Source: Abditibacterium sp.
GTDB taxonomy: Bacteria > Armatimonadota > Abditibacteriia > Abditibacteriales > Abditibacteriaceae
Length of the DNA: 64,000 nucleotides
NCBI GenBank assembly: GCA_965246885.1
Contig: OZ251992.1
Coordinates: forward strand, 3,104,001-3,168,000
Direction of reading: 5' to 3'
The first letter of the stretch is position 1. Every line of letters begins with the position of its first letter. Shown here piece after piece: positions 20,638-40,158 of this stretch. The translations under genes were made by a program, and so were the position numbers. The notes under the pieces were generated by a model. The model was not told where the DNA came from and searched no databases. It saw nothing but the letters and a program-made list of their open reading frames with translations.

Positions 20638-21777
20638 TTACCACCAGCACCGGAACGGTTCGTAGAGCGCCATGCCGATCATGTGTTTTTGGAGTTTGTA
20701 GCACTCCAAGCGTACCAAATGACGGTAGGAGACACGGCGCCCCAGCGTGCGATGCTCGAAAGTATCGCGCAGACGCTCTTCCCACGCTTTGATGACCACT
20801 TCTCTGCCCGCCTTATTGAGGTGGCAGAAATTAAGCGCGTGGTCGAAGTGTTTGGGCGCGATTTCGCCGTTGTTGATGAGGCGAAAAATCAACCTGTCCA
20901 CGATGGCCGGTTTGAAGATTTCGGAGACGTCGAGCGCGAGCGAGAAGCGGCGGTGGCCCGGTTGATGCAAGACGGAAATCGTCGGATTGAGCGCGGTGCG
21001 GTAAATCTCGCTCAAGCAGAGCGTATAACACAGGCTGTTAACGAACGAAATTAGGGCGTTGACGGGGTTATCGGGTGGGCGTTTGACGCGCTTTTGGAAC
21101 TCGGCCCACGACTGGTTGAAGATGGCGGGCCACGCTTCGTAGTAGGTGGCGCGGAGGGTGCCCTCGATACCCATCACGCTGGGCACGTCGGGAGCGGCGG
21201 CGAGCAGGGCGCGATGCGACTCGATGGCTTTTATCCAATGGCTGAGGTCGCGGCCCCGGCTGGCGGCGTTATAGTAGCGCAGCGTTTTGAGGATGTTGAA
21301 GCTCGCCCCCTCGACCAATTGGCGGGCCAAGTCAACGCGCTTCTTTTCGTTGGCATACAGCAGCACTTGTTTGACTGTCGTGAAGCCCGACACGACTTCC
21401 TGACGCGGCCAGAAGCTGCCGGTATAAAAGCCGTAGTAGTTAAAGAAGTGGAGCGGGACGCGGTGTTTGCCCAAAAAGTTGAAAAAGCGCGAGTTGAAAT
21501 CGCACTCGCCGAAGAGGTAGATCGCCTCGACATCGTTGATGGCGATGGGCCGTTTGGCGAGCGTGGGGCGCGGAGTGTAAGGGCCATCGTCGAAGTCCAG
21601 CATGATTTGCGCGTCCTCGTCTTCCAAGTCTTCGAGCGGGCAACCACTTTCGGCGGCGGCATCTTCGAGGTCGGCGCCCGCCAGTTCTTCGCTGTCGTCG
21701 GCGAAGGGGCGTAGATACAGCGTGTTTTGATGGCGCTGCATCCGGCCCGCCGAAAAGATGTAGTAAGGGCGTTTCAT
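20638..21777 (-). CDS. cas1: CRISPR-associated Cas1 (type I-B)
   Basis: HFFNYYGFYTGSF, MGIEG, RPPDNPVNALISF, LHQP..RRFSLALDVSEIFKP, YKLQKH; ATG overlaps the cas4 stop. Confidence 0.96.
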   Translation of the reverse strand: MKRPYYIFSAGRMQRHQNTLYLRPFADDSEELAGADLEDAAAESGCPLEDLEDEDAQIMLDFDDGPYTPRPTLAKRPIAINDVEAIYLFGECDFNSRFFNFLGKHRVPLHFFNYYGFYTGSFWPRQEVVSGFTTVKQVLLYANEKKRVDLARQLVEGASFNILKTLRYYNAASRGRDLSHWIKAIESHRALLAAAPDVPSVMGIEGTLRATYYEAWPAIFNQSWAEFQKRVKRPPDNPVNALISFVNSLCYTLCLSEIYRTALNPTISVLHQPGHRRFSLALDVSEIFKPAIVDRLIFRLINNGEIAPKHFDHALNFCHLNKAGREVVIKAWEERLRDTFEHRTLGRRVSYRHLVRLECYKLQKHMIGMALYEPFRCWW

Positions 21778-22334
21778 GATTTGGGGTCGGCTTGGAGTTC
21801 GTCGCAGTAGCAAAAATCGCAATAGGCGCACTTCAGGCAAAACGCGACTTTTTTCGGGCTGATGGCATCGAGACGCGGCGGCACGTTGTCCGCCGCGACG
21901 ATGCGCGTGACATCAAGCCGCGCCTGAACAAGCAGCGCCTCGCCCGCCGCATCGAGTTCGACGCTTTCGCGTGCTTTGATTTCGGGATAGTCAATGAGAC
22001 CGCGCGCCACGACGCCCTTCGAGCGCAGGAAGTCGAGATAGAACAGCATTTGCAAGCGGTGCGCTTCGCTCATGGCCTTGGATTTTTTGATTTCGTGAAC
22101 CGTGACGACGCCATCAGCGCCGCTCTGGTGTTCGACCCAGTCCAATACGGCGGTGTCTTCGAGGTTGATCTCCTTCTCGTGCCGTCCATAAGCCTGCGCC
22201 CCAATCTGCTTGCCAATCTGCACATCCTCATTCTCGCGCTCCATCTGGATGCCATGCGAAAACAACCACAGCTTGCGGTGGCAAACCAGCAAGTAGTTCA
22301 ACTGAGTCCCGGTTAAACGAGGAGTTTCGAGCAT
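21774..22334 (-). CDS. cas4: CRISPR-associated Cas4
   Basis: CHRKLWLF, D..., EIKKS, HRLQMLFYL, CLKCAYCDFC Fe-S cluster cysteines. Confidence 0.95.
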   Translation of the reverse strand: MLETPRLTGTQLNYLLVCHRKLWLFSHGIQMERENEDVQIGKQIGAQAYGRHEKEINLEDTAVLDWVEHQSGADGVVTVHEIKKSKAMSEAHRLQMLFYLDFLRSKGVVARGLIDYPEIKARESVELDAAGEALLVQARLDVTRIVAADNVPPRLDAISPKKVAFCLKCAYCDFCYCDELQADPKS

Positions 22335-22367
22335 GGTGTTTTTTCCTCCGTAGAAGCTCCAGTTTCA

Positions 22368-24719
22368 TCAGAATCCGATGTTGCTGTCGTCGTGGATGTT
22401 GTGTGCTTCTTCGGGCAAGCTCCAAAAATCGAACCCACCGCCTCGCGCGTCATAAGGAACAACATGGCGGATCACAATGATTGGAAAGTCCACTTCTTTT
22501 TCTTCGCGCGCACTGACTTTGATTTTTACCGGAATTGTAGTTTGAAATTTGGCTTCTTTGGGAATGCGGTGGAAACGCGAGGCGCGCACCGCGACTTGCA
22601 ACTGCGACAGCGCCGCGCGAGTGTCAGGCAAATTAGTATCGTAGTAGCATTGCGGAACGACCAACACGACATTTGAATCAATGTCCCGAATAACCACTCC
22701 ATCGGGATTGTCCTCGCCGTTGAAGTTCTCTTGCGGGCGCCGCCCGAAAACAGTGTCGTTGAAGTGGGCGTTCTCAACGGTGCCACCTTGAATAGGCACT
22801 TCGTCTGTCAAAGCATCCTCGCACCACTTCAAGCCGTTCTTAAAACCCAAGTCGGTTGTCCAAGGAGCGAATGTCCAAGTGCGATTGAGAAGCGCGACGT
22901 TCTCGTAAGGTAACGCGCCGGGGATCAGTTCTGGCTTCTTCGGATGAGGATCCAAATCGAGCGGCGCGATTTGAAGTCGGAATTTGAACCCTGCGGGCAA
23001 ACGCTTTGTTCCCTCAATTTGAGTAGATGTCTCGCCGCGTCGGTGCAAGCGCCCGGCGCGCTGCACGAGCGTATCGGCGGGCGCGAGTTCGGTAATCATA
23101 CGCTCTGCGGAAATGTTGAGAGACAGTTCGGCGGCTTGCGTGGCTACTAAAACCATTGGCTCATCACGTTTGAACGCCGCCAAAAGTTCGTCCTCCAATT
23201 GGCGTCGGTCGCGCGGCGCAAGTTCGGAGTGATAGCACCAAACGGGCATATTCGGAAGCTCCTCGCTCGCTGCGCGGGCAAGGGCTTTAGCACGTTCGAT
23301 TTGGTTAACGTAAATAGCCAGTTTCAAACCTTCGGCATCACGCAAAGCCTCGCGCGCGCAAAGCGTCGAGTTGAGTCGGAAACCTCTACCTTCAGTAAGC
23401 GGCGCATCCAAGGCTTCGGCTTGAAATGGATAAAAAGGATTGTCGGCTTCGATAACGGTTTGCGGCGCGTCGAAGCCAAAAAAAACGCGTCGCGTCGAAG
23501 GTAAAGTAGCCGACATGAAGAGCGTTGGAATCGCGTAGCGATTCAAAACTTTCTGGCCCTCTCGAATGGCGTTTAAAGTCGTAGTGTCGTAGGCGTGAAC
23601 TTCATCGAAAACAACGAGCGAGGAAAGCAGATTCCCAAAGGCGCGGTCGGAAAACTTGTAGCCGTGATACAGGCTCATCAAGAGATGATCTACGGTGGAG
23701 ATGGTGATAGCGTGTTCGTAGCGCACGCTTTTCCCGGCCCGTTCTTCGGGAGATTCCGGAAAAGACGATTCGTCGTCGCTGTCTACTGCTTCGCGCAAAA
23801 CCATTAACGCTTCCGAGTGAACGAGGCCAACATCGCCTTGAGCGTAAGCGTATAAATCGGGATTGACCATATCGCGCAATAGCGAGTTCGAGGTGAAGCG
23901 CGTAGGTAGACACAACACGATACGATCTACCTGATTCTCGTTCGCTAAACGCGCGGCCCGTTCCAATGCCATCGCGGTTTTGCCTGCGCCGCACCCAGCG
24001 AGGGCGCACAAACTCTGCTCTAAATTGTTTCGGCTCTCGATTTGAAACGAAGTAAGGGAGCCGGGAACATGAGGAGGCGCCACAAGCGGCGGTTCGGGCG
24101 CATGAGCGCCCGACGCAAGATGATCGGACTCGACCAACAACGACAATAGCAGACAGTAAAGCCCACGAAACTTGGAGCCACGCGCCAGTTGCGGCGCGCG
24201 GCGCACTGACTCCTCTACAAAAGTGCAAATTTTCAAGGCTTGCATCGTTTGAGGTAGCTTCCCTAAATATGGGAACGGCAAAGGAATCTCGTTGGATAAT
24301 TCGCGCCAGCAATCGCCGACTGGAGAAACCACTTCGCGTGCATAGCGATTTGGCCCAAAAGACCCGGCGTGCAATTGACCGTGATGCGCCAAAACTGCAA
24401 GCGACGACGCCAGCAGGTGAGGTGATAAAGTCTCTGGGCCTTGTCCCCACACCCAACGACAGGCGAGAAAAGAACTCAGCGCGTGCTGCGGCAATTTCTG
24501 CGGCGAAAATAAACGAGCCTGCCACTCCGTTGTGGCTTTTCCGAAGTCATGCAACCACGCCGTTGATGCCATCAAATCGCGTGCCTCGCCTTCGCCCACT
24601 CCCAAACGAGTAAAAGCACTGAGGCGGGCGGGCGTTAAAAGTTGGTGTGCGGCGTTTCGCACATCGCTTAGATGGCCATGCAGAGATTGAGGCGGTTTGG
24701 ATTTGGCGTAGATGGTCAT
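22368..24719 (-). CDS. cas3: Cas3 HD nuclease-helicase
   Basis: H..., LHDFGKA, HHG, SDHLAS (HD domain); GCGAGKT, DEVH, SATLP, YHS, ATQ..E.SLNI, QRAGRLHR (SF2 helicase). Confidence 0.94.
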   Translation of the reverse strand: MTIYAKSKPPQSLHGHLSDVRNAAHQLLTPARLSAFTRLGVGEGEARDLMASTAWLHDFGKATTEWQARLFSPQKLPQHALSSFLACRWVWGQGPETLSPHLLASSLAVLAHHGQLHAGSFGPNRYAREVVSPVGDCWRELSNEIPLPFPYLGKLPQTMQALKICTFVEESVRRAPQLARGSKFRGLYCLLLSLLVESDHLASGAHAPEPPLVAPPHVPGSLTSFQIESRNNLEQSLCALAGCGAGKTAMALERAARLANENQVDRIVLCLPTRFTSNSLLRDMVNPDLYAYAQGDVGLVHSEALMVLREAVDSDDESSFPESPEERAGKSVRYEHAITISTVDHLLMSLYHGYKFSDRAFGNLLSSLVVFDEVHAYDTTTLNAIREGQKVLNRYAIPTLFMSATLPSTRRVFFGFDAPQTVIEADNPFYPFQAEALDAPLTEGRGFRLNSTLCAREALRDAEGLKLAIYVNQIERAKALARAASEELPNMPVWCYHSELAPRDRRQLEDELLAAFKRDEPMVLVATQAAELSLNISAERMITELAPADTLVQRAGRLHRRGETSTQIEGTKRLPAGFKFRLQIAPLDLDPHPKKPELIPGALPYENVALLNRTWTFAPWTTDLGFKNGLKWCEDALTDEVPIQGGTVENAHFNDTVFGRRPQENFNGEDNPDGVVIRDIDSNVVLVVPQCYYDTNLPDTRAALSQLQVAVRASRFHRIPKEAKFQTTIPVKIKVSAREEKEVDFPIIVIRHVVPYDARGGGFDFWSLPEEAHNIHDDSNIGF

Positions 24720-24772
24720 GAAATCAAATGGCGCGGGGGTTCAATTGAGTACACGCGCCACAAAATCGGATG

Positions 24773-25621
24773 TTAAAAGAGCGTGCCCTGCTCTCCATCG
24801 AAAGCGAGAGTTCCATCTTCGCTTGGCGAGGGGCGTCCTCGTCGAGTTGGAAATGGAACCGAAGGCGGCGCAACGCGCGGAAACTCCGGCTCGAAGCTCC
24901 AAACTTGGCCGAAGCACTTCCACAGTTCGCAGTTCGCTTGAATGGGATTGTCAACGCGCGGAACGGTGACGAGCCAGCGTTCTAACTCCCATTTTTTATT
25001 TTGGATCGAGAACTGGCGCGGCAAGCTCGCCAGAATGCCGCCACCCTGCACACCCGAAACGGCTCCACTGGCGAGTTCTTGCGTGGATTGCGGTGTTTCC
25101 TCGCCCAACACCTCCATGTCAATGCCGTCATCGCTTTCTCCTAAATAGAGCGGCCAAGCCGGAGTCTTGAAAGCGGCTTGCAAATCGCGCGAGACTTCGG
25201 GCGAACAAAGGACGCCGACGGTGTAAATAGGCTGGATTAACTTCTGCCGGATGATAGGTGTAGAAGTCCACAATGCGTCATCTGGCGGCAGTTCTCCACG
25301 CGCTCTAATCCTATCCAGAGCCGCGACCTTTTCCGCTTTTTTACTGGCAGGTGTTTTGGACAGCGTATCCTCCGATGCTTTTTTCCACGTCGAATAAGTT
25401 TCGACCAGTTCACCCGCACGCGTTACAGCGATGGCGAAGCGCACTTGAGCGCGCCGCGAAACATCGTCTTGCGCCATTCCAAGCGCCGCCGCGCACAAAC
25501 CGTAAAGAGTAGTCGGCGGCGGTAAAGGAAAAGTGCGGTGAACGTTCGAGGTGAGAGGGTCGCGGAACGAACACCAGAACGGCACATGGATTCGGAGTCC
25601 CAAGCAAACATCGTGTTCCAT
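24773..25621 (-). CDS. cas5: Cas5
   Basis: FWCSFRDP, TFPLPPPTTLYGLCAAALG, P.WPLYLGESDD. Confidence 0.92.
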   Translation of the reverse strand: MEHDVCLGLRIHVPFWCSFRDPLTSNVHRTFPLPPPTTLYGLCAAALGMAQDDVSRRAQVRFAIAVTRAGELVETYSTWKKASEDTLSKTPASKKAEKVAALDRIRARGELPPDDALWTSTPIIRQKLIQPIYTVGVLCSPEVSRDLQAAFKTPAWPLYLGESDDGIDMEVLGEETPQSTQELASGAVSGVQGGGILASLPRQFSIQNKKWELERWLVTVPRVDNPIQANCELWKCFGQVWSFEPEFPRVAPPSVPFPTRRGRPSPSEDGTLAFDGEQGTLF

Positions 25622-25633
25622 GAAAGGTTTGGG

Positions 25634-26554
25634 TTAAACAACCGCGTCGGCGACTTTTTGCAACGTAGCGACGGGGAAGCCGGTCACAATGCCCAACGTT
25701 TTGCACAAGTCGAGCAAAGCGGCATCGTTGGTGACGACATTTGGCGTGTGGCCCAGAAAAAGTTGCGCGCCGCTCAATTGTTTTAGGTCGTCCGCAACAG
25801 CTTCAAGAGTTCCCAAATCGGCGGCTCCGTTTTCATCGAGTTCGAGAACGCGCAAGCCGCGCTGGGTGTATTCGGGCAATACGGCGGCAAAAAACACGTC
25901 TGGCGAGAAAGACGTGGCATTGCGCGCTTGTTTGGCAAAATCGCCCATGCGGGGTAACGCCATTAAGATGGCTTTGATGCGTTTGAGGCGCTCAGCCTCG
26001 TCTATCTCATCCTTCCACTCGCGCTTGGTAATAGTCTTGGTCGCAGCGTTGCCTTCAATAACCAGCTTGCGTCCTACAGCATGGACGTCAATCGTCATCC
26101 CCGTGCGAAATACGTTTTCGGCGAGTTGAACGTAGGCCAAACGCTGGTCTTTGGTGGATTTCTCGTCACTCTTTTCCAAGTCACTCATGCGAAGCAGCAA
26201 GTCAGTGACGATCTCGCCGTCCAGCTGCGCGAGCGCGGGCGTGCATTTGATCGGCGACCAACGACGGTCGCTTCCCTCGCCTTTGCGCGGCGACAAGTAA
26301 CCGAAAAGGTCGCACAACCAATCCTCCTTGATGTCTCCGGTTGGCGCTTCAGGCGTGGATTTAAAGCAACTGGGGTTGCCACGTTCGATGGCTTCGCGTA
26401 AAGCGTGACGCACTGATTGCCCCGAAGCGTAGGGGCGCTTGCCGGAGCGATACATTTTTAGCTCCACGACGTTGCCACCACCGCCCTCGCCGGAGTTGAG
26501 GTTTGATAAATCGACTTTGGAAAGCCATGTGACTGTGACGCATTTGGTATTCAT
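25634..26554 (-). CDS. cas7: Cas7 (Cst2/DevR family)
   Basis: NLNSGEG, ASGQSVRHALRE, DLFGYL, RWSPIK. Confidence 0.9.
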   Translation of the reverse strand: MNTKCVTVTWLSKVDLSNLNSGEGGGGNVVELKMYRSGKRPYASGQSVRHALREAIERGNPSCFKSTPEAPTGDIKEDWLCDLFGYLSPRKGEGSDRRWSPIKCTPALAQLDGEIVTDLLLRMSDLEKSDEKSTKDQRLAYVQLAENVFRTGMTIDVHAVGRKLVIEGNAATKTITKREWKDEIDEAERLKRIKAILMALPRMGDFAKQARNATSFSPDVFFAAVLPEYTQRGLRVLELDENGAADLGTLEAVADDLKQLSGAQLFLGHTPNVVTNDAALLDLCKTLGIVTGFPVATLQKVADAVV

Positions 26555-26560
26555 GGGAAT

Positions 26561-28165
26561 TTAGGATTTGGCGGCGGCTTGGCCGAGGTTTTTGTTGAAA
26601 GCGGCGAGAGAGGCGAATAGCGAGATGGTTTGCGAGGCTGCGGCCCAGTTTGGGGTATGCGTTAATTCCAGAACAGCGCGGAATTGCTCTGGCGAGATGT
26701 GCCACAAGTCGCTGCGTTCGTCGCCATTGGAAGCCTTCATCAGGCGAAAGGCGAATAGTTCGAGGTTTTCACGCAGATCGGATGGTTTGGCGCTGTTGTG
26801 CAAGCGCGAGAGCAAGGTGACATCGCGGCAAAAAGCGTTGCCAGCGAGTTCGCCGATCTTTCGGCAGGCGGTGAGTTGTTCATCGGTCATGATTTGGAGT
26901 TGTTTCGCAAAATGGGCGAAAAAGTGAGGTAGCAAACCTGTAGCACGACGATTCGATTTCGTCGCGTCTCCAGTTTGTTTATAAAGCAGGAAAGCGCACC
27001 GTTCGAGGTCGTGCCAAAACGACAGAGGTTGTTTGTGGAATAGAGCGGCAGAAATGTGGCTTTGAATTGGCGTATTCTCCAATCTGACGCCGCTTAAACA
27101 ATCGCGCACGAAGGCGACTTTTGATTGGTTAGTCCATTTGGCGGGCGGATCAATCGGATCGAGTAGCGGAAAAACCGTCTTTGGAACTTCGATGTGATGG
27201 ATAACGCCAACGTTGACGTTAGTGCTACTCGAATAATTGATAGCGAGCCAATCGTTGAGATCGCGCACATCATCTTCGCCCAAATCTTCGGATGAACGTG
27301 TCGGCGCCAAGCGACTTTGGAGCGCGTCGAGCAACGTTAAAAGCTGCGCTTCTTCGCCATCACCGCGCAACGGCAAGTTGCGGTACATTTCGCCACTGGG
27401 CGTGTCGGGATGCACCAGAGCACGGTATTTAAGGTGTTTCCACAACCGGATAGCACGCTCAAACGGCACATTTTCAGGCAAATACAACGTGCAATCGCCT
27501 GTTGGGTCTTTAACAAAAGGCTTACTCGCACTCACGGAGGCCAAAAAGCAGGGCAAAAGAAACTGCGCGCTTTCAGTGCGTGCGGAGTTGCCCGATGAAG
27601 GGCCGCGCAACTTGCCATTAGAATGGTGTTTAGCTGCCAAAGGGTTGGCGCCTTGGGAAACGTCGCCAGTCTCGCCTGAAGTAACGGCCAACGTCCCAAT
27701 TTCTTCAAACGAGTCTTTGCCACCGCCGACCGAAAGCAAGGCCGCCAGTGCATTCGGAGTTAGTGGAATGTTGGAAATACGCTGCGCTTTGTTGCGTGCA
27801 TTTGCTGGCAGGTTTCCGGTGCAACTGTTGACTTCCCATTCCTCCTTGGAAACCTTCGGGTCGCACTTTTCACCAGCGACGCGCCGCCCGTTTTGAACGG
27901 AGGGAGCGCAACGCGCGATTTTCTTCCCTTCTTGGAAACGCGGGTGCAAGTCGTTCCATCGGTCGAACGCTGCCATCTGCTTTTGAATGGCCTCTCCAAA
28001 TTGTTGGGGAGAAATATTCGCTTCAAAATCGAAACCCGCCGCGTCTGGTTGCCCTAAATTAATAACCTTGCCCTGCGGCCATTCGCACGCTTGGAGCAAG
28101 TCGTAAAGTTCGCACAGCCCCCAATCGTGCCAAGGGTCGCCAGTCTGTCGCCATTGCATTCTCAT
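26561..28165 (-). CDS. cas8: Divergent Cascade large subunit (Cas8-like) with helical Cas11-like C-terminus
   Basis: Position between cas6 and cas7; N-terminal TGDPWHDWGL resembles Cas8a1/b N-termini; ATGA overlap with the cas6 stop; otherwise not recognisable. Confidence 0.7.
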   Translation of the reverse strand: MRMQWRQTGDPWHDWGLCELYDLLQACEWPQGKVINLGQPDAAGFDFEANISPQQFGEAIQKQMAAFDRWNDLHPRFQEGKKIARCAPSVQNGRRVAGEKCDPKVSKEEWEVNSCTGNLPANARNKAQRISNIPLTPNALAALLSVGGGKDSFEEIGTLAVTSGETGDVSQGANPLAAKHHSNGKLRGPSSGNSARTESAQFLLPCFLASVSASKPFVKDPTGDCTLYLPENVPFERAIRLWKHLKYRALVHPDTPSGEMYRNLPLRGDGEEAQLLTLLDALQSRLAPTRSSEDLGEDDVRDLNDWLAINYSSSTNVNVGVIHHIEVPKTVFPLLDPIDPPAKWTNQSKVAFVRDCLSGVRLENTPIQSHISAALFHKQPLSFWHDLERCAFLLYKQTGDATKSNRRATGLLPHFFAHFAKQLQIMTDEQLTACRKIGELAGNAFCRDVTLLSRLHNSAKPSDLRENLELFAFRLMKASNGDERSDLWHISPEQFRAVLELTHTPNWAAASQTISLFASLAAFNKNLGQAAAKS

Positions 28166-28842
28166 ACCAAACTCCCAAACCCGCTCCCCGTCAGATGTCC
28201 GGCGCCTACGCACCAGGCGAATTGGACGGCTTCGGGAGGGCCTTCGACGAGGATGGGGCAGACGCTGGCGCGTTTGTAGAAGTCGTCTTTGATGTGGATA
28301 AGGCGGGTTTTGGGCGACTTATAGCTCAGGTCGAAGCCGACGCGGGCGCCTTCGGCGAGGTGGGGCAGGCCAGCTTTGTCGAGTTTGTGGTGGAGGGTTT
28401 TGGTGAGGTAATCGGCGGCGCGGGGGTCGTCGAAGAGGATGTGCGGGTCGTTGTCGCCGTCTTTGTCGCCCCGGATGAAAACCGGGCTGTCGGCGCGAAA
28501 GACGCGGCGCGGGCCAAACTGAGGCGTGCTCTGACTCGAAACTTCCACCACTTCCATGCCACAGCACACGCTCGACGCTTGCAGGGCGGCGGCGGCGATG
28601 TGGCGGAGCAACTTTCCGCCGTCGGGCGTGTCGGGCGCCGAGATGTGCCACGTCGCGCCGCGTGGGAACGCGAGGGCGCCCTCGCGCGCGCCGCCGCCTT
28701 GCAACGAGCCAACACTGTACAAACTAAGCCCGTCGTGCAAGGTGTTCGGGCCAAGCCATCGGTGCAACACGCCGGTCAGCAGGTGATTGTAATTAAAACT
28801 CACCGGCTGACGATTGGGACTCAAGGAAAAATGAAGCCTCAT
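28162..28842 (-). CDS. cas6: Cas6 endoribonuclease
   Basis: LHDGLSLYS, SPVFIR, C-terminal G-rich loop GAGHLTGSGFG. Confidence 0.93.
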   Translation of the reverse strand: MRLHFSLSPNRQPVSFNYNHLLTGVLHRWLGPNTLHDGLSLYSVGSLQGGGAREGALAFPRGATWHISAPDTPDGGKLLRHIAAAALQASSVCCGMEVVEVSSQSTPQFGPRRVFRADSPVFIRGDKDGDNDPHILFDDPRAADYLTKTLHHKLDKAGLPHLAEGARVGFDLSYKSPKTRLIHIKDDFYKRASVCPILVEGPPEAVQFAWCVGAGHLTGSGFGSLV

Positions 28843-29012
28843 GGGGGTTGTCGCGGGGTTAAAAAAGCTGATTGTCGTGGGCAACGAAAACCGCCGTGCA
28901 ATTTACCCGGAATGGGGGCGGCACGCAACCCTTTTTTTGGCGTTTGGCAAGTCTTTTTTGTTACCGCGTTCTGCCCTTTCGTTGGCTCCTCAAATGTTTG
29001 AGACAGAGCAGT

Positions 29013-29179: not shown

Positions 29180-29353
29180 TAACGGGCGGGAGGAGACCTC
29201 TTACTTCGGAACAATTTCGTTTGTGTTTTAACGATGCCCCTCCCGCCGCGAAAGCGGGAAGGAAGGGACCGACGAAACGCCCTCCGTCTCGTCCAAACTA
29301 ACGCTTCCGACGGACGGAGCGGTTTCTCTTTTCCTGTTCCGGGGTCTTCCGTG

Positions 29354-32300
29354 ATGCAACTCGAACTCTTGCGCCAAGGCGCCCAACTGGCCGGACTGCT
29401 CCCCGGCGCCCCAGTAACAGTAACGGGCGTGCAATGGCGCGGCGCCGATGCGCTCGAACTGTTTTTCAAAGACGCGGCGGGCCGCACCGACTCGCAGATG
29501 CTACTCCGTGAGGACGAGGAGCGGCTGGACATCGTGGGCGAGGCCGGGCGCGCGTGGGCCTACGATGGCGACGGCGCGAGGTTTCGCTTGGTCTGCGAAG
29601 CGCAGCGTATCCGCTTGGCCCATCTGTTCGACCCGCACCTCGCGGTGCACGCTTCGCAGGTGGACGCGCTTCCGCACCAAATCGCGGCGGTTTATGGAGA
29701 CCTATTGCCACGCCAACCGCTCCGCTTTTTGCTCGCCGACGACCCCGGCGCGGGCAAGACGATTATGACGGGCCTCTACCTGAAAGAGTTGGCGATGCGC
29801 GGCGACCTGCGGCGCGCCCTCGTGGTGTGCCCCGGCTCGCTCGCCGAACAGTGGCAGGATGAATTGGCGGCGCGCTTTGGGTTGGAGTTCGAGATTTTGA
29901 CGCGCGACGCGGTGCAACTGGCGCGGTCGGGCAACCCGCTCGCCGAGCGCGATTTGTGGATCGCCCGGCTCGACCAACTGGCGCGCGGCGAAGAGTGGCA
30001 CGCCCTTTTGCGCGACTGCGAGTTCGATGTCGTCGTGGTGGATGAGGCCCACAAAATGTCGGCGTCCTTTTTCGGCGGCGAAATGAAGGCGACCAAGCGC
30101 TACCGCTTGGGCCAACTGCTGGGCGGTGTTTGCCGCCATTTCCTGCTTCTGACCGCAACACCGCACAATGGCAAAGAGGAGGATTTTCAGTTTTTCATGG
30201 CGTTGCTTGACCCCGACCGCTTCGAGGGCCGCTTCCGGTCGGGCGTTCATGCGAGTGATGTGTCCGACCTGATGCGCCGCCGCATCAAGGAGGAATTAGT
30301 CAAGTTCGACGGCACGCCGCTTTTCCCGGCGCGGCGGGCTTACACCGTCCATTACGCGCTCTCCGCCGCGGAAGCGCAACTCTACGAGGCAGTGACCGAT
30401 TACGTGCGGCAAGAGATGAACCGCGCCGACAAATTGGACGGCAAAAGCGGCGCGACGGTCGGCTTTGCGCTCACGGTTTTGCAGCGCCGCTTGGCCTCGT
30501 CGCCTGCCGCCATCCACGAGTCCATCGCGCGCCGCCGCAAACGCTTGGAAACGCGCCTCGCCGAAGCCAAAGCCGGGAGCGGCGCCCTCCCATTCGAGGC
30601 CGCCCTGCCGGACGACGCCGACGACTTCTACGACGAGTCCGTCCCCAGCGAAATCGAGGACGCCGAAGAACAAATCGCCTTGCAAGCGTCGGCGGCGCGC
30701 ACACGGAGCGAATTGGCGGCAGAAATTCGCGCTTTGGAGCGGCTCGAATCGCTCGCGCTCGAAGTGAAACAAGCGGGCACAGACCGCAAATGGGACGAGC
30801 TTTCGGGATTATTAAGCGGCACCGGCGACGCGGCAAGCGAACTCTTCGACGCGCAGGGCGGGCGGCGCAAACTGATCGTCTTCACCGAACACCGCGACAC
30901 GCTCAGCTATCTAACGAACCGGATTCGCACCCTATTGGGCCGCGAGGAAGCCGTCGTCGCCATTCACGGCGGCATCCCGCGCGACGAGCGCCGCCGCGTG
31001 CAGGACGCTTTCACCCACGACAAGGAAGTGCTGGTGCTATTGGCAACGGACGCGGCGGGCGAGGGCATCAATTTGCAGCGCGCGCACTTGCTCGTCAACT
31101 ACGATTTGCCTTGGAATCCCAACCGCATTGAGCAGCGTTTCGGGCGCATCCATCGCATCGGGCAAACCGAGGTCTGCCACGTCTGGAACCTCGTCGCCGC
31201 CCAAACCCGCGAGGGCGACGTGTGGAAAACGCTCCTCGAAAAGTTGGAAAACCAGCGCCAATCCTTGGGCAACGCCGTCTTCGACGTATTAGGCCAGTGC
31301 TTCGCCGACACGCCGCTCCGCCAACTGCTCATCGAAGCCGTGCGTTACGGCGACCAGCCGGAAGTGCGCGCCGCCTTGCTCGAAAAGCTGGAAGGCGCGC
31401 TCGACACCGACCACTTGCGCGCCTTGCTCGACGAGCGCGCGCTCGCCACACAGTCGCTTTCTCTGGAACAAGTCGGGCTAATTCGGGAAGACATGGAGCG
31501 CGCCCAAGCCCGCAAGTTGCAGCCGCACTACATTTCCCAGTGGTTTCAGGAAGCCTTCGCGTCCTTGGGCGGCGACCTGCGCCAGCGCGAGGCCGACCGC
31601 TTCGAGATCGCGCGCACCCCGCTCGCCGTGCGGGAGCGGGGACGAGCGCGGCGCGCTTCGGTTCCCGCGCGCTACGAACGCCTGACCTTCAAGCGCGAAG
31701 CCGTTCACCTTCCCGGCAAAGCGGTCGCCGCGCTTGTGTGCCCCGGTCATCCCCTGCTTGATTGCACCTTGGACTTGCTGTTGGAGCGCGACGGCGATGT
31801 TCTGCGGCGCGGCGCGATTTTGGTGGATGACGAGAACAGTTGCCCCGACGTGCGCGCGCTGTGGATGCTGGAACACGCCGTTCAAGACGCGGGCGTGGAC
31901 AGTGGCGGCGCGCGCGGGGTGGCATCCAAGCGGTTGCAATGGGTCGAAATCGGCGCCGACGACACGCCGCGCGACGGCGGCCCCGCGCCCTACCTCGATT
32001 GCCGCGCCGCCACCGACGCCGAAAAAGCGGCGCTCACGCAGCATCTGGGCGCCGACTGGCTCCCGACCGACGGCGAAAGTCGTGCCCTCGATTATGCCGC
32101 GTCCGTGTTGGTGCCGCGCCATTTGGCCGACGTGCGACAGGAACGCTGGGCGCGCATAGACAAAACGCGCGCCGCCGTGACGGAGCGTTTGACCAAGGAA
32201 ATCGCTTACTGGGACGGGCGCGCCCTCGAACTGCGCGCCGGAGAAGAAGCAGGGAAAAGCAACGCCAAGCTCAACTCCGCCCAAGCCCGCGCCCGCGCCG

Positions 32301-32932
32301 ACGACCTCGAAGCCCGGTTAAAGCACCGTTTGGAATCGCTCGAACGCGAGCGCCACCTGTCGGCGCGGCCCCCCATCGTAGTGGGCGGCGCCGTCGTCGT
32401 GCCACTTTCACTCGTCCAAGCCGCCACGCGCGCCCCTGCCCAATCGAGTAGCCCCAACGACGAGCCGTCCGCGTCCAAGCCCGCGCCGCCCAAAGAAGAA
32501 CCGCCGCTCGATCCCGAACTGCGCCACAAACTCGACCAACTCGCCATCGCAACCGCCCTCGCAACCGAGCGCGCCTTTGGCCACGCGCCGACCGAAATGG
32601 ATCACAACCACCCCGGCTACGACATCGAATCGCGCGACGGCGAAACCGGACGGCTGCGCTTTTTGGAAGTCAAGGGCAAACTCGCCGAATACGGCACAGT
32701 TACCGTTTCGCGCACCCAAATCCTCACCGCCCTCAACAGCCCCGACGACTGGTTTTTGGTCGTCGTGCCCATCGAACGGGCGGGCGAAGGCGACGCAGAA
32801 ACGCTCACCCCCGGCGAGCCGTTCTACCTGCAACGCCCCTTCTCCAAGGAACCCGACTTCGCCGCCACGAGCGTGAATTTTGACCTGCACGCCCTGCTCG
32901 GCGGCAACAGCGAGGGAAGCAACATTTTGTGA
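29354..32932 (+). CDS. SNF2-family helicase with C-terminal DUF3883 PD-(D/E)xK nuclease
   Basis: LPHQ, LLADDPGAGKT, DEAHK, LTATPH.G, ATDAAGEGINLQ, DLPWNPNRIEQRFGRIHRIGQ; GYDIES...LEVKG. Confidence 0.92.
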   Translation: MQLELLRQGAQLAGLLPGAPVTVTGVQWRGADALELFFKDAAGRTDSQMLLREDEERLDIVGEAGRAWAYDGDGARFRLVCEAQRIRLAHLFDPHLAVHASQVDALPHQIAAVYGDLLPRQPLRFLLADDPGAGKTIMTGLYLKELAMRGDLRRALVVCPGSLAEQWQDELAARFGLEFEILTRDAVQLARSGNPLAERDLWIARLDQLARGEEWHALLRDCEFDVVVVDEAHKMSASFFGGEMKATKRYRLGQLLGGVCRHFLLLTATPHNGKEEDFQFFMALLDPDRFEGRFRSGVHASDVSDLMRRRIKEELVKFDGTPLFPARRAYTVHYALSAAEAQLYEAVTDYVRQEMNRADKLDGKSGATVGFALTVLQRRLASSPAAIHESIARRRKRLETRLAEAKAGSGALPFEAALPDDADDFYDESVPSEIEDAEEQIALQASAARTRSELAAEIRALERLESLALEVKQAGTDRKWDELSGLLSGTGDAASELFDAQGGRRKLIVFTEHRDTLSYLTNRIRTLLGREEAVVAIHGGIPRDERRRVQDAFTHDKEVLVLLATDAAGEGINLQRAHLLVNYDLPWNPNRIEQRFGRIHRIGQTEVCHVWNLVAAQTREGDVWKTLLEKLENQRQSLGNAVFDVLGQCFADTPLRQLLIEAVRYGDQPEVRAALLEKLEGALDTDHLRALLDERALATQSLSLEQVGLIREDMERAQARKLQPHYISQWFQEAFASLGGDLRQREADRFEIARTPLAVRERGRARRASVPARYERLTFKREAVHLPGKAVAALVCPGHPLLDCTLDLLLERDGDVLRRGAILVDDENSCPDVRALWMLEHAVQDAGVDSGGARGVASKRLQWVEIGADDTPRDGGPAPYLDCRAATDAEKAALTQHLGADWLPTDGESRALDYAASVLVPRHLADVRQERWARIDKTRAAVTERLTKEIAYWDGRALELRAGEEAGKSNAKLNSAQARARADDLEARLKHRLESLERERHLSARPPIVVGGAVVVPLSLVQAATRAPAQSSSPNDEPSASKPAPPKEEPPLDPELRHKLDQLAIATALATERAFGHAPTEMDHNHPGYDIESRDGETGRLRFLEVKGKLAEYGTVTVSRTQILTALNSPDDWFLVVVPIERAGEGDAETLTPGEPFYLQRPFSKEPDFAATSVNFDLHALLGGNSEGSNIL

Positions 32933-32960: not shown

Positions 32961-33734
32961 CTAAGCGGGCACGACATCCTTTTTCGTGCGCGCCAGATAC
33001 ACGACGAGGGCGAGGATGGCGGCGAGGAAAAGGAAACTCGTGCCGACGGTGCCCAAACCCATGCCGCCGTCGGCGTGGGACTGGGAAAGCAGATCGCCGA
33101 TGGACGCGCCAAGCGGTCGGGTGAGGATGTAGGCCGCCCAAAACGCGAAAATGGCGTTGAGTTTCAGGCCGCGCCCCAATGCAACGAAACCAATCAGCGC
33201 AGCGAAGAGGACGACGGAGCGCGGATAGCCCAAGTGGAAATGCTCGCCGACCAAATCGCCCGCCGCCGTGCCGAGCGCGAACGTCCACAAGATGGCGCTC
33301 CAATAAAACGCCTCGCGGCGCGTCGTGGTGATGGAGTGAACGGACAAGGTGCCTTCAACGCGGCCCCACACGGCGAAGGTGAGCGCCAGCAGAACGCTGA
33401 ACGCGATAGTCGAAGTGACGAGCGAGACGTGGAAATTGTCGCTCAGGTTGTCGGTAATGAGCGTGCCGACGACGCTTAGGAGGACGACGGCCATCCAATA
33501 CAGCCCGACGACATAGCGCCGCGCGCGGAACTGGAACGCGAGCGCGACGACGAGGAGCGCGCCCATGATAAGCGTGGTGCCCGTCAGCCCGACGTGCAAG
33601 TTCATGTTGAGGAAGTCGGCGAAAGTCTCGCCGACTGTCGTGCAAAGAATCTTAATCACCCAAAAAGTGAGCGTAACTTCCGGCACTTTGTTGAGCATCG
33701 CCCGCGCGGTCGCGGGGGTTGGAAGCGAGTTCAT
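32961..33734 (-). CDS. COG4705/DUF347 repeat membrane protein
   Basis: NKVPEVTL.FWVIKIL.TTVGET.AD, GTLSVHSI..RREAFYW..IL.TFALGTA.GD, AYILTRPLGAS.GD. Confidence 0.9.
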   Translation of the reverse strand: MNSLPTPATARAMLNKVPEVTLTFWVIKILCTTVGETFADFLNMNLHVGLTGTTLIMGALLVVALAFQFRARRYVVGLYWMAVVLLSVVGTLITDNLSDNFHVSLVTSTIAFSVLLALTFAVWGRVEGTLSVHSITTTRREAFYWSAILWTFALGTAAGDLVGEHFHLGYPRSVVLFAALIGFVALGRGLKLNAIFAFWAAYILTRPLGASIGDLLSQSHADGGMGLGTVGTSFLFLAAILALVVYLARTKKDVVPA

Positions 33735-33847
33735 GGAGGGGGCAGACGGCGGGCGGGCGGCGCCGGGTTCACTCAACCGAGCGAACATAGGAACTATCCC
33801 AAGGAAGCAAGTCGGGGACGGCGCTCAAAAGTGCAAACTGTGCGCGT

Positions 33848-33856
33848 CCCCCCCCC
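33848..33856 (+). repeat. C9 homopolymer upstream of the methyltransferase start
   Basis: Nine consecutive C, ending 20 nt before ATG 33876. Confidence 0.85.
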
Positions 33857-33875: not shown

Positions 33876-36681
33876 ATGCCCACGAAAAAGCTCATCGAAG
33901 TCGCTTTGCCGCTTGAAAAGATCAACGAGGCGGCGGCGAAGGAGAAATCCATCCGGCATGGGCATCCTTCGACGCTGCATTTGTGGTGGGCGCGGCGACC
34001 TTTGGCGGCGTGTCGGGCGGTGCTGTTCGCTTCGATTGTGGACGACCCGTCGTCGCACCCCGACCGCTTTCCGACCGAGGAACTCCAAGAAGCGGAGCGG
34101 CGACGCTTGTTCGACATCATCGAACGAATGGTGCCTTGGGAGAACTCGAACGACCCGCACGTCCTGAAAGAAGTGCGCGACGAGATAATGAAGGCGACGG
34201 GTGGGCACCCGCCCGCCGTGCTTGACCCGTTCTGCGGCGGCGGTTCGATACCCCTCGAAGCGCAGCGATTGGGGTTGGAAGCGCACGGCTCGGATTTGAA
34301 TCCGGTCGCGGTGCTGATTACCAAGGCGCTCATCGAAATCCCGCCGCGCTTTGCGAATCGGCGCCCCGTCAACCCCGACGAGCAGACCGCCGCCAAAACG
34401 CACGACTGGACGGGCGCCAAAGGGTTGGCGGCGGACGTGCGCTACTACGGGAACTGGATGCGCGAGGAAGCCCAGAAACGAATCGGCCACTTGTATCCCA
34501 AAGCGACGTTGCCAAGCGGCGAAGAAGCGACGGTCATCGCGTGGTTGTGGGCGCGCACCGTCCCGTGTTCCAACCCGGCGTGTGGCGCGCGGATGCCGCT
34601 CGTCCGTTCCTTCGCGCTTTCGACCAAACCGGGCAAAGCGGCGTGGGTCGAAACGAGCGTCCTCCGCCCCGACGGGGCGCGGCCCCAAGTCACCTTCGCG
34701 GTGGCGACGGGAGCCAGCGTGCCCGCCGACAAACTGGAGGGCACCGTCAACCGCCAAGGCGCGACGTGCTTGTGTTGCGGCACGCACACCGGCTTCCCGC
34801 ACGTGCGCGCCCAAGGCAAAGCCGGACACATGGACGCGCAACTCATGGCCATCGTCGCCGAAGGCACCCGCACCCGCATTTATCTGGCGCCCACCCCCGA
34901 ACACGAAGCAACTGCGCGCGCGGCAGTGCCGGGGTGGAAACCGGAGGTCGCATTGCCCAATAACCCGCGCAACTTCAACACGCCAATTTACGGGTTGGAT
35001 ACGTTCGATAAGCTCTTCACTGCCCGCCAACTCATCGCGCTGACGACATTCTCGGATTTAGTGGGCGAAGCGAAAAGGAAAGTCGAAGCGGATATAATGG
35101 CCAATAACGTGCCCCCCCCCCCCCTACATTTTTCCCCATTCAGACGCGGCGTTATCTGAAGGCGGCGATGGCCCTGCGGCTTACGCCGAAGCGGTGTCAT
35201 TGTATCTGGCTTTCGCCGTAGATAAATGCAGCGACTACTGGTCGTCTCTCTGCTCATGGCATCAGAGCGGAGAGAAAATGAGAAACACCTTTTCACGCCA
35301 AGCCCTTGCTATGGTTTGGGACTACGCGGAAAATAATTCCTTTTGTGATTCATCAGGCAATTGGATGGCTATGGTAGATTGGTGTTGGAAGTGTGTGGAG
35401 CGCCTCCCATCAGAGAAAATGGGGATGGTTAACCAGCAAGATGCTACCCAGTTCACCGCCAACGCGCCGCTCATCTCCACTGACCCGCCTTACTACGACA
35501 ACATCGGCTACGCCGAACTGAGCGACTTCTTCTATGTGTGGCTGCGCCGCTCGCTCGGCGACGTATTTCCCGACTTGTGCGGCACGCTTCAAACGCCCAA
35601 GACGCCGGAGCTTGTGGCTACTCCTTACCGTTTCGGCGGCTCGCGCGCTAAGGCAGAAGCGTTCTTCGAGGAGGGGCTGGGCAAGGCGTTTGTGCAGATG
35701 CGCGCGAACGTCCATCCCGATTATCCGCTCACGGTCTATTACGCCTTCAAGCAAGCGGAGACGGTAGACGAGCAAGGCACGGCTTCGACCGGATGGGAAA
35801 CGATGCTGGCCGGTCTGATTCGTGCGGGGTTCCAAATCACCGGGACTTGGCCGATGCGCTCGGAAATGGCGAACCGGATGATTGCCTCAGATGCCAACGC
35901 TCTTGCGTCGTCCATTGTGCTGGTTTGTCGCCCGCGCGCGGACGATGCGGCGAGCATTACGCGGACGCAGTTTTTGCGCGAATTGCGGCGCGAGTTGCCC
36001 GAAGCGTTGCGGACGATGCAGCATGGCAACATCGCCCCGGTGGATTTTGCGCAAAGCGCCATCGGGCCGGGGATGGGCGTGTTTTCGCGCTATAAAGCCG
36101 TGCGCGAACTCGACGGCAAGCCGCTTTCCATCCGCGCCGCGCTGTCCATCATCAACCAAACGCTCGATGAAGTGCTGAGCGAACAAGAGGGCGACAGCGA
36201 CCCCGAAACGCGCTGGGCCATCGCGTGGTTCTCGCAAAACGGCTGGAACGAGGGCGCTTATGGTCTCGCGGAAATACTCTCGACCGCCAAAGGCACGGCT
36301 GTCGTCGGGTTGGTCGAAGCGGGCGTGGCGCTGTCGCGCGGCGGCAAAGTGCGCCTCGTGCCGCGCGACGAACTGCCCGCCGACTGGAACCCCGCGCAGG
36401 ACAAACGCTTGACCGTGTGGGAAACCGCGCAGCACCTCATCCGCGCCCTCGACCAAACCGGCGAAAGCGGCGCCGCCCGGTTACTCGCGCGCTTGTGCGA
36501 GGGCAACGCCGAAACCGCCGACCTCGCCCGCGACCTCGCTTACCGCCTCTATTCGCTGTGCGAACGCAAAAAGTGGGCGAGCGAGGCGCTCGCGCTCAAC
36601 TCCCTCGTCATCGCGTGGCCCCAAATCCAAGCGCTCTCGAAGGCAGCGCCGACGCCGATGCAGGGGGAGTTGGAGTTATGA
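33876..36681 (+). pseudogene. DUF1156 amino-methyltransferase frameshifted at a C13 tract (candidate phase-variable gene)
   Basis: 5' ORF has KKLIEVALPL, HLWWARRPLA and motif I DPFCGGGSIP; 3' ORF (+1 frame) has motif IV TDPPYYD; removing one C at 35112-35124 fuses them into one ORF. Confidence 0.9.
35112..35124 (+). repeat. C13 homopolymer tract
   Basis: GTG-C13-TACATT at the frameshift point. Confidence 0.92.
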
Positions 36682-36682
36682 G

Positions 36683-36787
36683 AGCGAATGAATTCGCAGC
36701 CAGCAAAGTCGTCGGCCTTCGCCGACGTAGAACTTGCCACCCCGTCGGCGAAGGCCGACGACTTTGCTGGCTGCGAATTCATTCGCT
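36683..36787. repeat. Perfect 45-bp inverted repeat with 15-nt loop (REPIN/MITE-like)
   Basis: 36683-36727 is the exact reverse complement of 36743-36787. Confidence 0.92.

Positions 36788-36825: not shown

Positions 36826-40158
<3,333 letters not shown>

Follow-up and report, generated by a model that had tools for sequence, protein, structure and literature searches.

We found that the DUF1156 methylase gene (hmaB) of an Hma defence locus in Abditibacterium is thrown out of frame by a run of 13 cytosines (C13), and to judge from its sequence this run is very probably a slipped-strand on/off switch of the gene. Slipped-strand mispairing alters the length of a tract by one base, and one length in three is in frame. 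A phase-variable methylase had been proposed in the first-pass annotation of this DNA, and the proposal is well supported. Tracts in the same loop occur in both in-frame and out-of-frame alleles of one clade, the gene carries no second lesion, and its 3' half is conserved. The chain as a whole, leading from the slippage switch to a methylase-guided restriction that is disarmed without self-attack, is probable. The features are listed below by position in the window, that is, the whole stretch of 64,000 nucleotides analysed.

20638 to 28884, minus strand: type I CRISPR-cas operon (cas1, cas4, cas3, cas5, cas7, a 550-aa gene, cas6), divergent from hmaA, given for context only.
29354 to 32932, plus strand: hmaA, SNF2 helicase with C-terminal NOV_C PD-(D/E)XK nuclease, intact (PADLOC HmaA, E=0, 1508 bits; Pfam SNF2, Helicase_C, NOV_C).
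32961 to 33788, minus strand: DUF347 membrane-protein gene between hmaA and hmaB (Pfam PF03988; no PADLOC match).
33848 to 33856, plus strand: C9 run at the edge of the DUF347 insertion, with its end 19 nt upstream of the hmaB ATG.
33876 to 35159, plus strand: hmaB 5' part as now read, 427 aa, with DUF1156, motif I DPFCGGG at nt 34224, the first part of the target-recognition region, an off-frame tail and TGA.
35112 to 35124, plus strand: C13 tract, candidate slippage switch, in an indel-tolerant loop between motifs I and IV.
35125 to 36681, plus strand: hmaB 3' part, 518 open codons out of frame with the start, with the rest of the recognition region, motif IV DPPY at nt 35482 and the C-terminal domains.
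36683 to 36787, no strand assigned: hairpin element of 105 nt with 45-nt perfect arms, between hmaB and hmaC, from a dispersed repeat family.
36826 to 40158, plus strand: hmaC, Swt1-like HEPN fused to a DUF499 AAA+ ATPase, intact (PADLOC HmaC, E=0, 1017 bits; Pfam HEPN_Swt1, DUF499).

The Hma gene set (SNF2 helicase, methylase, and ATPase) was complete at the locus by PADLOC. The longest open reading frame of hmaA begins at 29234, and its likely start is 29354. The HmaB profile matched hmaB in two halves (501 and 675 bits), and profile positions 478-960 corresponded to the hmaB 3' part. A DUF1156 N6-methylase with motif I before motif IV and the recognition region between them is present in the in-frame state only. 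By gene content, the locus is assigned to Hma, a system defined in PMC8565338 and classed as Type-1 DUF499-centred and BREX-related in PMC12839542 (both sources consulted in part). The order of helicase-nuclease, DUF1156 methylase and HEPN-DUF499 ATPase, as well as the presence of a gene inserted inside the operon, are shared with known Hma systems. A Type-2 BREX-related (MANTIS) identity was rejected, since neither the DUF3780 gene nor the PLD-nuclease helicase was found in the locus and the scores were far below the Type-2 cut-offs (NF042963, 143 against 1000 with the full-length relative P0001; NF042964, 156 against 1100; NF042962, 160 against 1200). Citrobacter and Burkholderia plasmid loci, considered as Type-2 systems, were ruled out by their annotation. 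The motifs of the partners were intact, as had been claimed for the nuclease motifs: D...EVK in HmaA, and the HEPN motif RNKWAH and Walker A FGGGKT in HmaC. The fourth acidic residue of HmaA (E1121 in Halomonas) is Q, which is also the residue in genomes G003 and G010 and in locus L147. In G003 and G010 the DUF347 gene is not at this place (tblastn/blastn layout of L031 and L033). The 105-nt hairpin belongs to a set of at least 25 related copies spread over the genome, and cas6 adjoins, upstream or downstream, every Hma locus of the genus that has enough flank (the window, L031, L033, L034, and L201). A promoter and terminator scan gave nothing above shuffles, and a search by sequence for a relative with a solved structure gave none (best E 0.064).

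The frame opened by the ATG at 33876 reads ...NNVPPPPLHFSPFRRGVI and ends at a TGA stop at 35157-35159, giving a product of 427 aa. The stop had been placed correctly, after the poly-Pro stretch, but the translation given with it omitted the 11 residues between tract and stop. With 12 cytosines in the tract (also with 6, 9, or 15) the frame reads YIFPHSDAALSEGG... up to 36681. The computed product at C12 is 934 aa and joins motif I (DPFCGGG, residue 117) to motif IV (DPPY, residue 536), as the first-pass annotation had predicted. C13 is the sole run longer than 10 nt, and so the longest homopolymer, in the two-contig genome of 3,555,033 bases, for which a rough extrapolation from G/C runs of 5-9 gives an expectation of about 0.03 G/C runs of 12 or more. 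As in a contingency locus, the length of an unusually long repeat inside hmaB sets the reading frame. The C9 run at 33848-33856 is one of only nine G/C runs of at least 9 in the genome. A crude genome-wide scan, which covers homopolymer frameshifts only, returned 455 same-strand neighbour pairs with overlapping frames. A run of at least 7 lay in the overlap in 7 of the 455, and hmaB was the only overlap junction with a run longer than 8. Among those seven pairs hmaB alone is in the window, in agreement, for homopolymer junctions, with the earlier statement that no other gene of the window is frameshifted.

We then compared the tract among relatives. A close hmaB was present in 3 of the 27 genomes of the family. 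In the congener G010 the gene is split in the same loop by a coding-strand G16 (14 or 17 would be in frame). This run is the longer of two G/C runs of at least 12 in the 8 Mb of that genome, and its length may itself be a long-read miscall. G003 carries C14 at the same place. This allele was at first taken as a third clean case and was downgraded to weak evidence, because its contig ends 74 nt away and the assembly is full of poly-G/C runs (766 overlapping 12-mer C/G matches). Two full-length relatives have poly-Pro in the loop (P0001, 942 aa, PPPP; P0241, 943 aa, PPPPP), and two truncated ones end shortly after PPPPP (P0122, 431 aa) or GGGGG (P0124, 441 aa). These four are known as protein only, so that their homopolymer DNA is deduced from the poly-Pro and poly-Gly. 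In the clade there are two full-length and four broken alleles, counting the window's own, and four of these six are represented by protein sequence only. The ON and OFF states were found in different species or strains (73-90% identity) and not within a single clone. Locus L115 was not counted as independent, its 3' protein being identical to P0244 (457/457 residues). A tree built on the N-terminal part had 23 rows, 8 of them close and 15 chosen outgroup matches. All eight close rows fell in one clade (support 100/100), within which a poly-G pair (100/99) separates from a group that includes the poly-Pro alleles (98/96). The relatives, whose tract lengths the first-pass annotation had named as a check, include in-frame and out-of-frame alleles at this loop.

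Compared with other HmaB loops the tract represents an insertion, at a place that tolerates indels, where several homologues are shorter by up to about 17 residues (placed by alignment). The loop was covered in 155 of the 165 locus records examined, some of them near duplicates; in the 154 more distant loops the longest run was 7 or less, against 16 in G010. A phylum search added 18 further loops, with a longest run of 8 within 200 nt. Among 118 full-length matches with the anchor motif, the loop contained poly-Pro in one (P0001) and a natural GGG in another. At motif I, no G-run was longer than 6 in 148 matches to the motif. What sets the hmaB described here apart from known Hma systems is the slippage tract, the loop in question being plain in 154 other homologues. 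A search of a phage collection matched only distant Sulfolobus virus methylases. A comparison of the flanks by eye gave no support to the idea that the tract had been inverted as one piece between G000 and G010. Several further features of the close genes were observed. The hmaB 5' part of G003 (L033 7378-8922) has an inserted stretch of about 100 residues ahead of motif I, absent from the window gene. Variable blocks of a few recurring types, common to distant taxa, flank the tract at hmaB residues of about 355-375 and 435-460 (alignment A1); this pattern would be expected of exchangeable recognition segments. G010 also has a second, decayed Hma copy (L201 8348-11763), in which hmaB lacks its 5' part and adjoins a transposase-like gene, and hmaC is partial and in several frames.

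In the proposed mechanism, replication slippage would move cells between C12 or C15, encoding an enzyme of 934-935 aa, and C13, C14, or C11, encoding a fragment of 427-448 aa. The OFF fragment would keep motif I and the MANTIS-type specificity segment and would lose motif IV and the C-terminal domains; it is presumably null, because OFF alleles sit beside intact hmaA and hmaC both here and in G010. On the pattern of MANTIS and BREX, full-length HmaB would be loaded by the HmaC ATPase, would mark self DNA and would guide the HmaA helicase-nuclease to unmarked sites. Because HmaB would both mark self and guide HmaA, its loss would silence self-methylation and methylase-guided restriction together and disarm this arm without self-attack, while HmaB-independent activity of HmaA, as against T4, would stay on in OFF cells.

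The model in which loss of the methylase is harmless and disarms restriction comes from MANTIS. According to the portion of that report consulted (10.64898/2026.09.23.753747), a swap of MtsC 445-527 switches specificity, an mtsC knockout is non-toxic and relieves restriction, an intact but non-methylating MtsC is toxic, and restriction requires every gene; no phase variation was found in the same portion. MANTIS (Gao_RL, Type-2) shares with the present locus a homologous DUF499 ATPase and a DUF1156-type methylase with a central recognition domain, and differs in its nuclease, neither DUF3780 (MtsB) nor the PLD nuclease of MANTIS being found here. MtsC 445-527 corresponds approximately to HmaB 322-400, a segment that ends at the tract loop. 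The correspondence was drawn through a Type-2 stand-in methylase, whose motifs I and IV are both offset by 26 from MtsC and to which HmaB is 29% identical over aligned columns (hhalign probability 99.8). The suggestion that HmaB also supplies target recognition, made in the first-pass annotation, is thus supported by analogy. The same annotation had the whole defence system switched, and this was overstated. In the part of PMC11232893 consulted, the HmaA of Halomonas restricts T4 by itself and shows no toxicity when HmaB is absent, and hmaB occurs in 85.3% of hmaA loci, leaving about 15% without it. Since HmaA alone defends against T4, the switch, on analogy, most likely governs the methylase-guided arm and not necessarily all defence.

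The Halomonas results would also suit a real switch that alters host methylation only, and possibly gene expression as a phasevarion, with HmaA/HmaC defence independent of it. HmaB overexpression left T4 susceptibility unchanged, T4 grown on HmaB-overexpressing cells was likewise unchanged, and the role of HmaB is treated as an open question in the part of the Hma literature consulted (PMC11232893), in which no demonstration of HmaB methylation was found. Against this stand the requirement of MANTIS restriction for every gene, with the methylase setting specificity, and the role of PglX as the BREX specificity factor (PMC11341690, in the part consulted). We consider a switch of methylation alone unlikely and retain the methylase-guided arm as its probable target.

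In Type III mod phasevarions a simple repeat in the methylase frame switches methylation, and a regulated gene set is the defining feature. The simple repeat in a methylase frame is shared with hmaB, which belongs to a different system. The methylome-dependent regulon that the first-pass annotation raised as a possibility found no support in these analyses. Likewise, Pgl (type 2 BREX) of Streptomyces coelicolor is turned on and off by a homopolymer in the methylase gene of a multi-gene defence system whose other genes are intact. The methylase family of hmaB is different (DUF1156, group alpha order), the system is Hma, and its tract consists of C in one subclade but of G in another. Switching has been measured for Pgl, at 1e-2 to 1e-4 via the pglX G tract (PMC4365076, in the part consulted, citing Sumby and Smith 2003), whereas we infer it for hmaB. 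No report of phase variation or frameshift was found in the literature on DUF1156, Hma, and BREX-related systems, nor a phase-variation report of this kind in that on Abditibacterium, in a survey that covered subscription journals for the smaller part.

Full-length HmaB might also be made from the C13 allele by programmed recoding, in which a slip of the ribosome (+1 at CCC-C) or of RNA polymerase yields a small fixed amount of the enzyme. CCC-C is a known +1 slippery site, and C13 requires just such a one-base skip; moreover, low methylase levels protected MANTIS single mutants (10.64898/2026.09.23.753747, in the part consulted). Recoding needs a fixed direction, which is not common to the alleles: the run is C in some and G in others, the window needs one base fewer while G010 needs one more or two fewer, and two relatives (P0001 and P0241) are simply in frame. 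Some leak is still possible, but programmed recoding as the function of the tract is very unlikely.

Both halves of hmaB are open, and 230 of the 236 highly conserved columns are kept (6 differences, against 0-18 in homologues), so that the additional inactivating lesions which would have told against a switch were not found. Pairwise dN/dS of the 3' half was 0.14-0.19 against G003, G010, and L115, and that of hmaC was 0.16-0.18. The changes private to this genome in the 3' half amounted to 31.5 synonymous and 3.5 non-synonymous ones. By these substitution patterns, the untranslated 3' half of hmaB is under purifying selection. Recent ordinary pseudogenisation at a fragile site, with no selection for switching, would fit the patchy distribution of Hma (the 3 of 27 family genomes) and the decayed second copy in G010, and a very recent death would be invisible to the selection tests. 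Still, the tract is inserted relative to other HmaB loops, is poly-C and poly-G in two subclades, and persists across alleles with dS near 1, with distant homologues lacking it. A purely harmful tract should be lost, so its persistence counts against pseudogenisation, to which we assign little probability.

The C13 length itself was supported by two sequencing runs, in each of which one contig spans the tract with 0 substitutions and 0 gaps (X1, 33920-36712, depth 44; X2, 34918-35754, depth 31; both C13 only). The two runs come from a single study with no platform recorded, and the assembly may derive from one of them. Because contigs lose minority alleles, the result identifies C13 as the majority allele and says nothing on mixtures of lengths; the sampled population is mostly OFF. 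At contig level, a uniform C12, which in the first-pass annotation would have pointed to an assembly error, was not found. G8/C8 runs inside three genes, which we take from their sequences to be rodA-, guaB- and pnp-like, keep frame. Together with the finding that only hmaB has an overlap run longer than 8, this suggests that the assembly is not homopolymer-prone. That the true allele is C12 with an intact gene, and C13 a sequencing or assembly miscall, is highly improbable, for although long homopolymers are prone to sequencing error and the provenance of the two runs leaves room for it, C13 appears without a gap in the contigs of both samples, frames are kept at the G8/C8 runs and no other overlap junction has a run above 8, and even a miscall would change the present state only, the 12-nt run in the loop remaining across the clade.

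A different kind of allele was found in G003, whose second hmaB copy (L034 715-1317) has its central segment, from the R-x-Y-L motif to YDNIGY, inverted between 16-bp inverted repeats with one mismatch. Flipping the segment in silico restores a frame of 648 codons, compared with 393 as assembled. The same junction peptide also terminates P0123, from a second data set, and P0242, the partner of P0123, begins beyond the right junction. The segment equivalent to that of MtsC (HmaB about 322-400) starts at the left end of the inversion. The sequence makes this a candidate intragenic inversion switch in hmaB. No unflipped allele with the G003-type left end was found, both known cases being flipped. 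Inverted repeats as a family-wide feature were ruled out: the longest internal one was 15 or less in 80 of 81 intact genes, and the HxRCY left end occurred in 1 protein only among those collected. A broader reading is possible, though we hold it only tentatively and think it rather doubtful. In it, poly-C, poly-G, and the 16-bp-repeat intragenic inversion would be three separate on/off devices within one small clade of Hma methylases, all placed in the one recognition region, the inversion having its left end where the MANTIS specificity segment starts; turning hmaB OFF would then flip Hma, without silencing it, between methylase-guided sequence-specific restriction and a methylation-independent HmaA/HEPN backup.

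Long runs were also surveyed in other genomes of the genus. The other G/C runs of at least 12 in G004, G009, G010, and G012 (6/6) lay in or at methylase, secreted-protein, or pilus genes. A G18 (L227 4033-4050, G009) and a G15 (L231 4038-4052, G004) are at the extreme 3' end of N6/N4 methylase genes, with TAAATG immediately after the run; in G004 the ATG directly after the G15 run starts a DpnII nuclease gene. Length changes of these two runs would be predicted to alter the methylase tail and the coupling to the next gene, with the core intact. The runs of 12-13 nt (L229 4018-4029 and L230 4030-4042, G004; L226 3974-3985, G012; L228 3991-4003, G010) occur either in the signal region of proteins with fn3 repeats or a beta-helix or ahead of a Tad pilus gene. 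These fn3-repeat, beta-helix, and Tad pilus genes are candidate phase-variable surface genes, and the genus seems, from its genome sequences, to use such runs elsewhere than in hmaB. An apparent plus-strand bias of long C runs in congeners faded after 11-mers were counted.

Together, an Hma methylase with a switch of the pglX style is likely, and its clade contains two types of tract and a candidate inversion. If true, phase variation of the pglX type would also occur in the widespread Hma (Type-1 BREX-related) family and in Abditibacterium. Where a tool judges from one assembly that an Hma system is complete or broken, what it records may be a single phase of a switch. The occurrence of natural OFF alleles beside intact nuclease genes indicates that loss of HmaB is tolerated, as a methylase-guided effector predicts, and these alleles give a ready pair for probing the role of HmaB.
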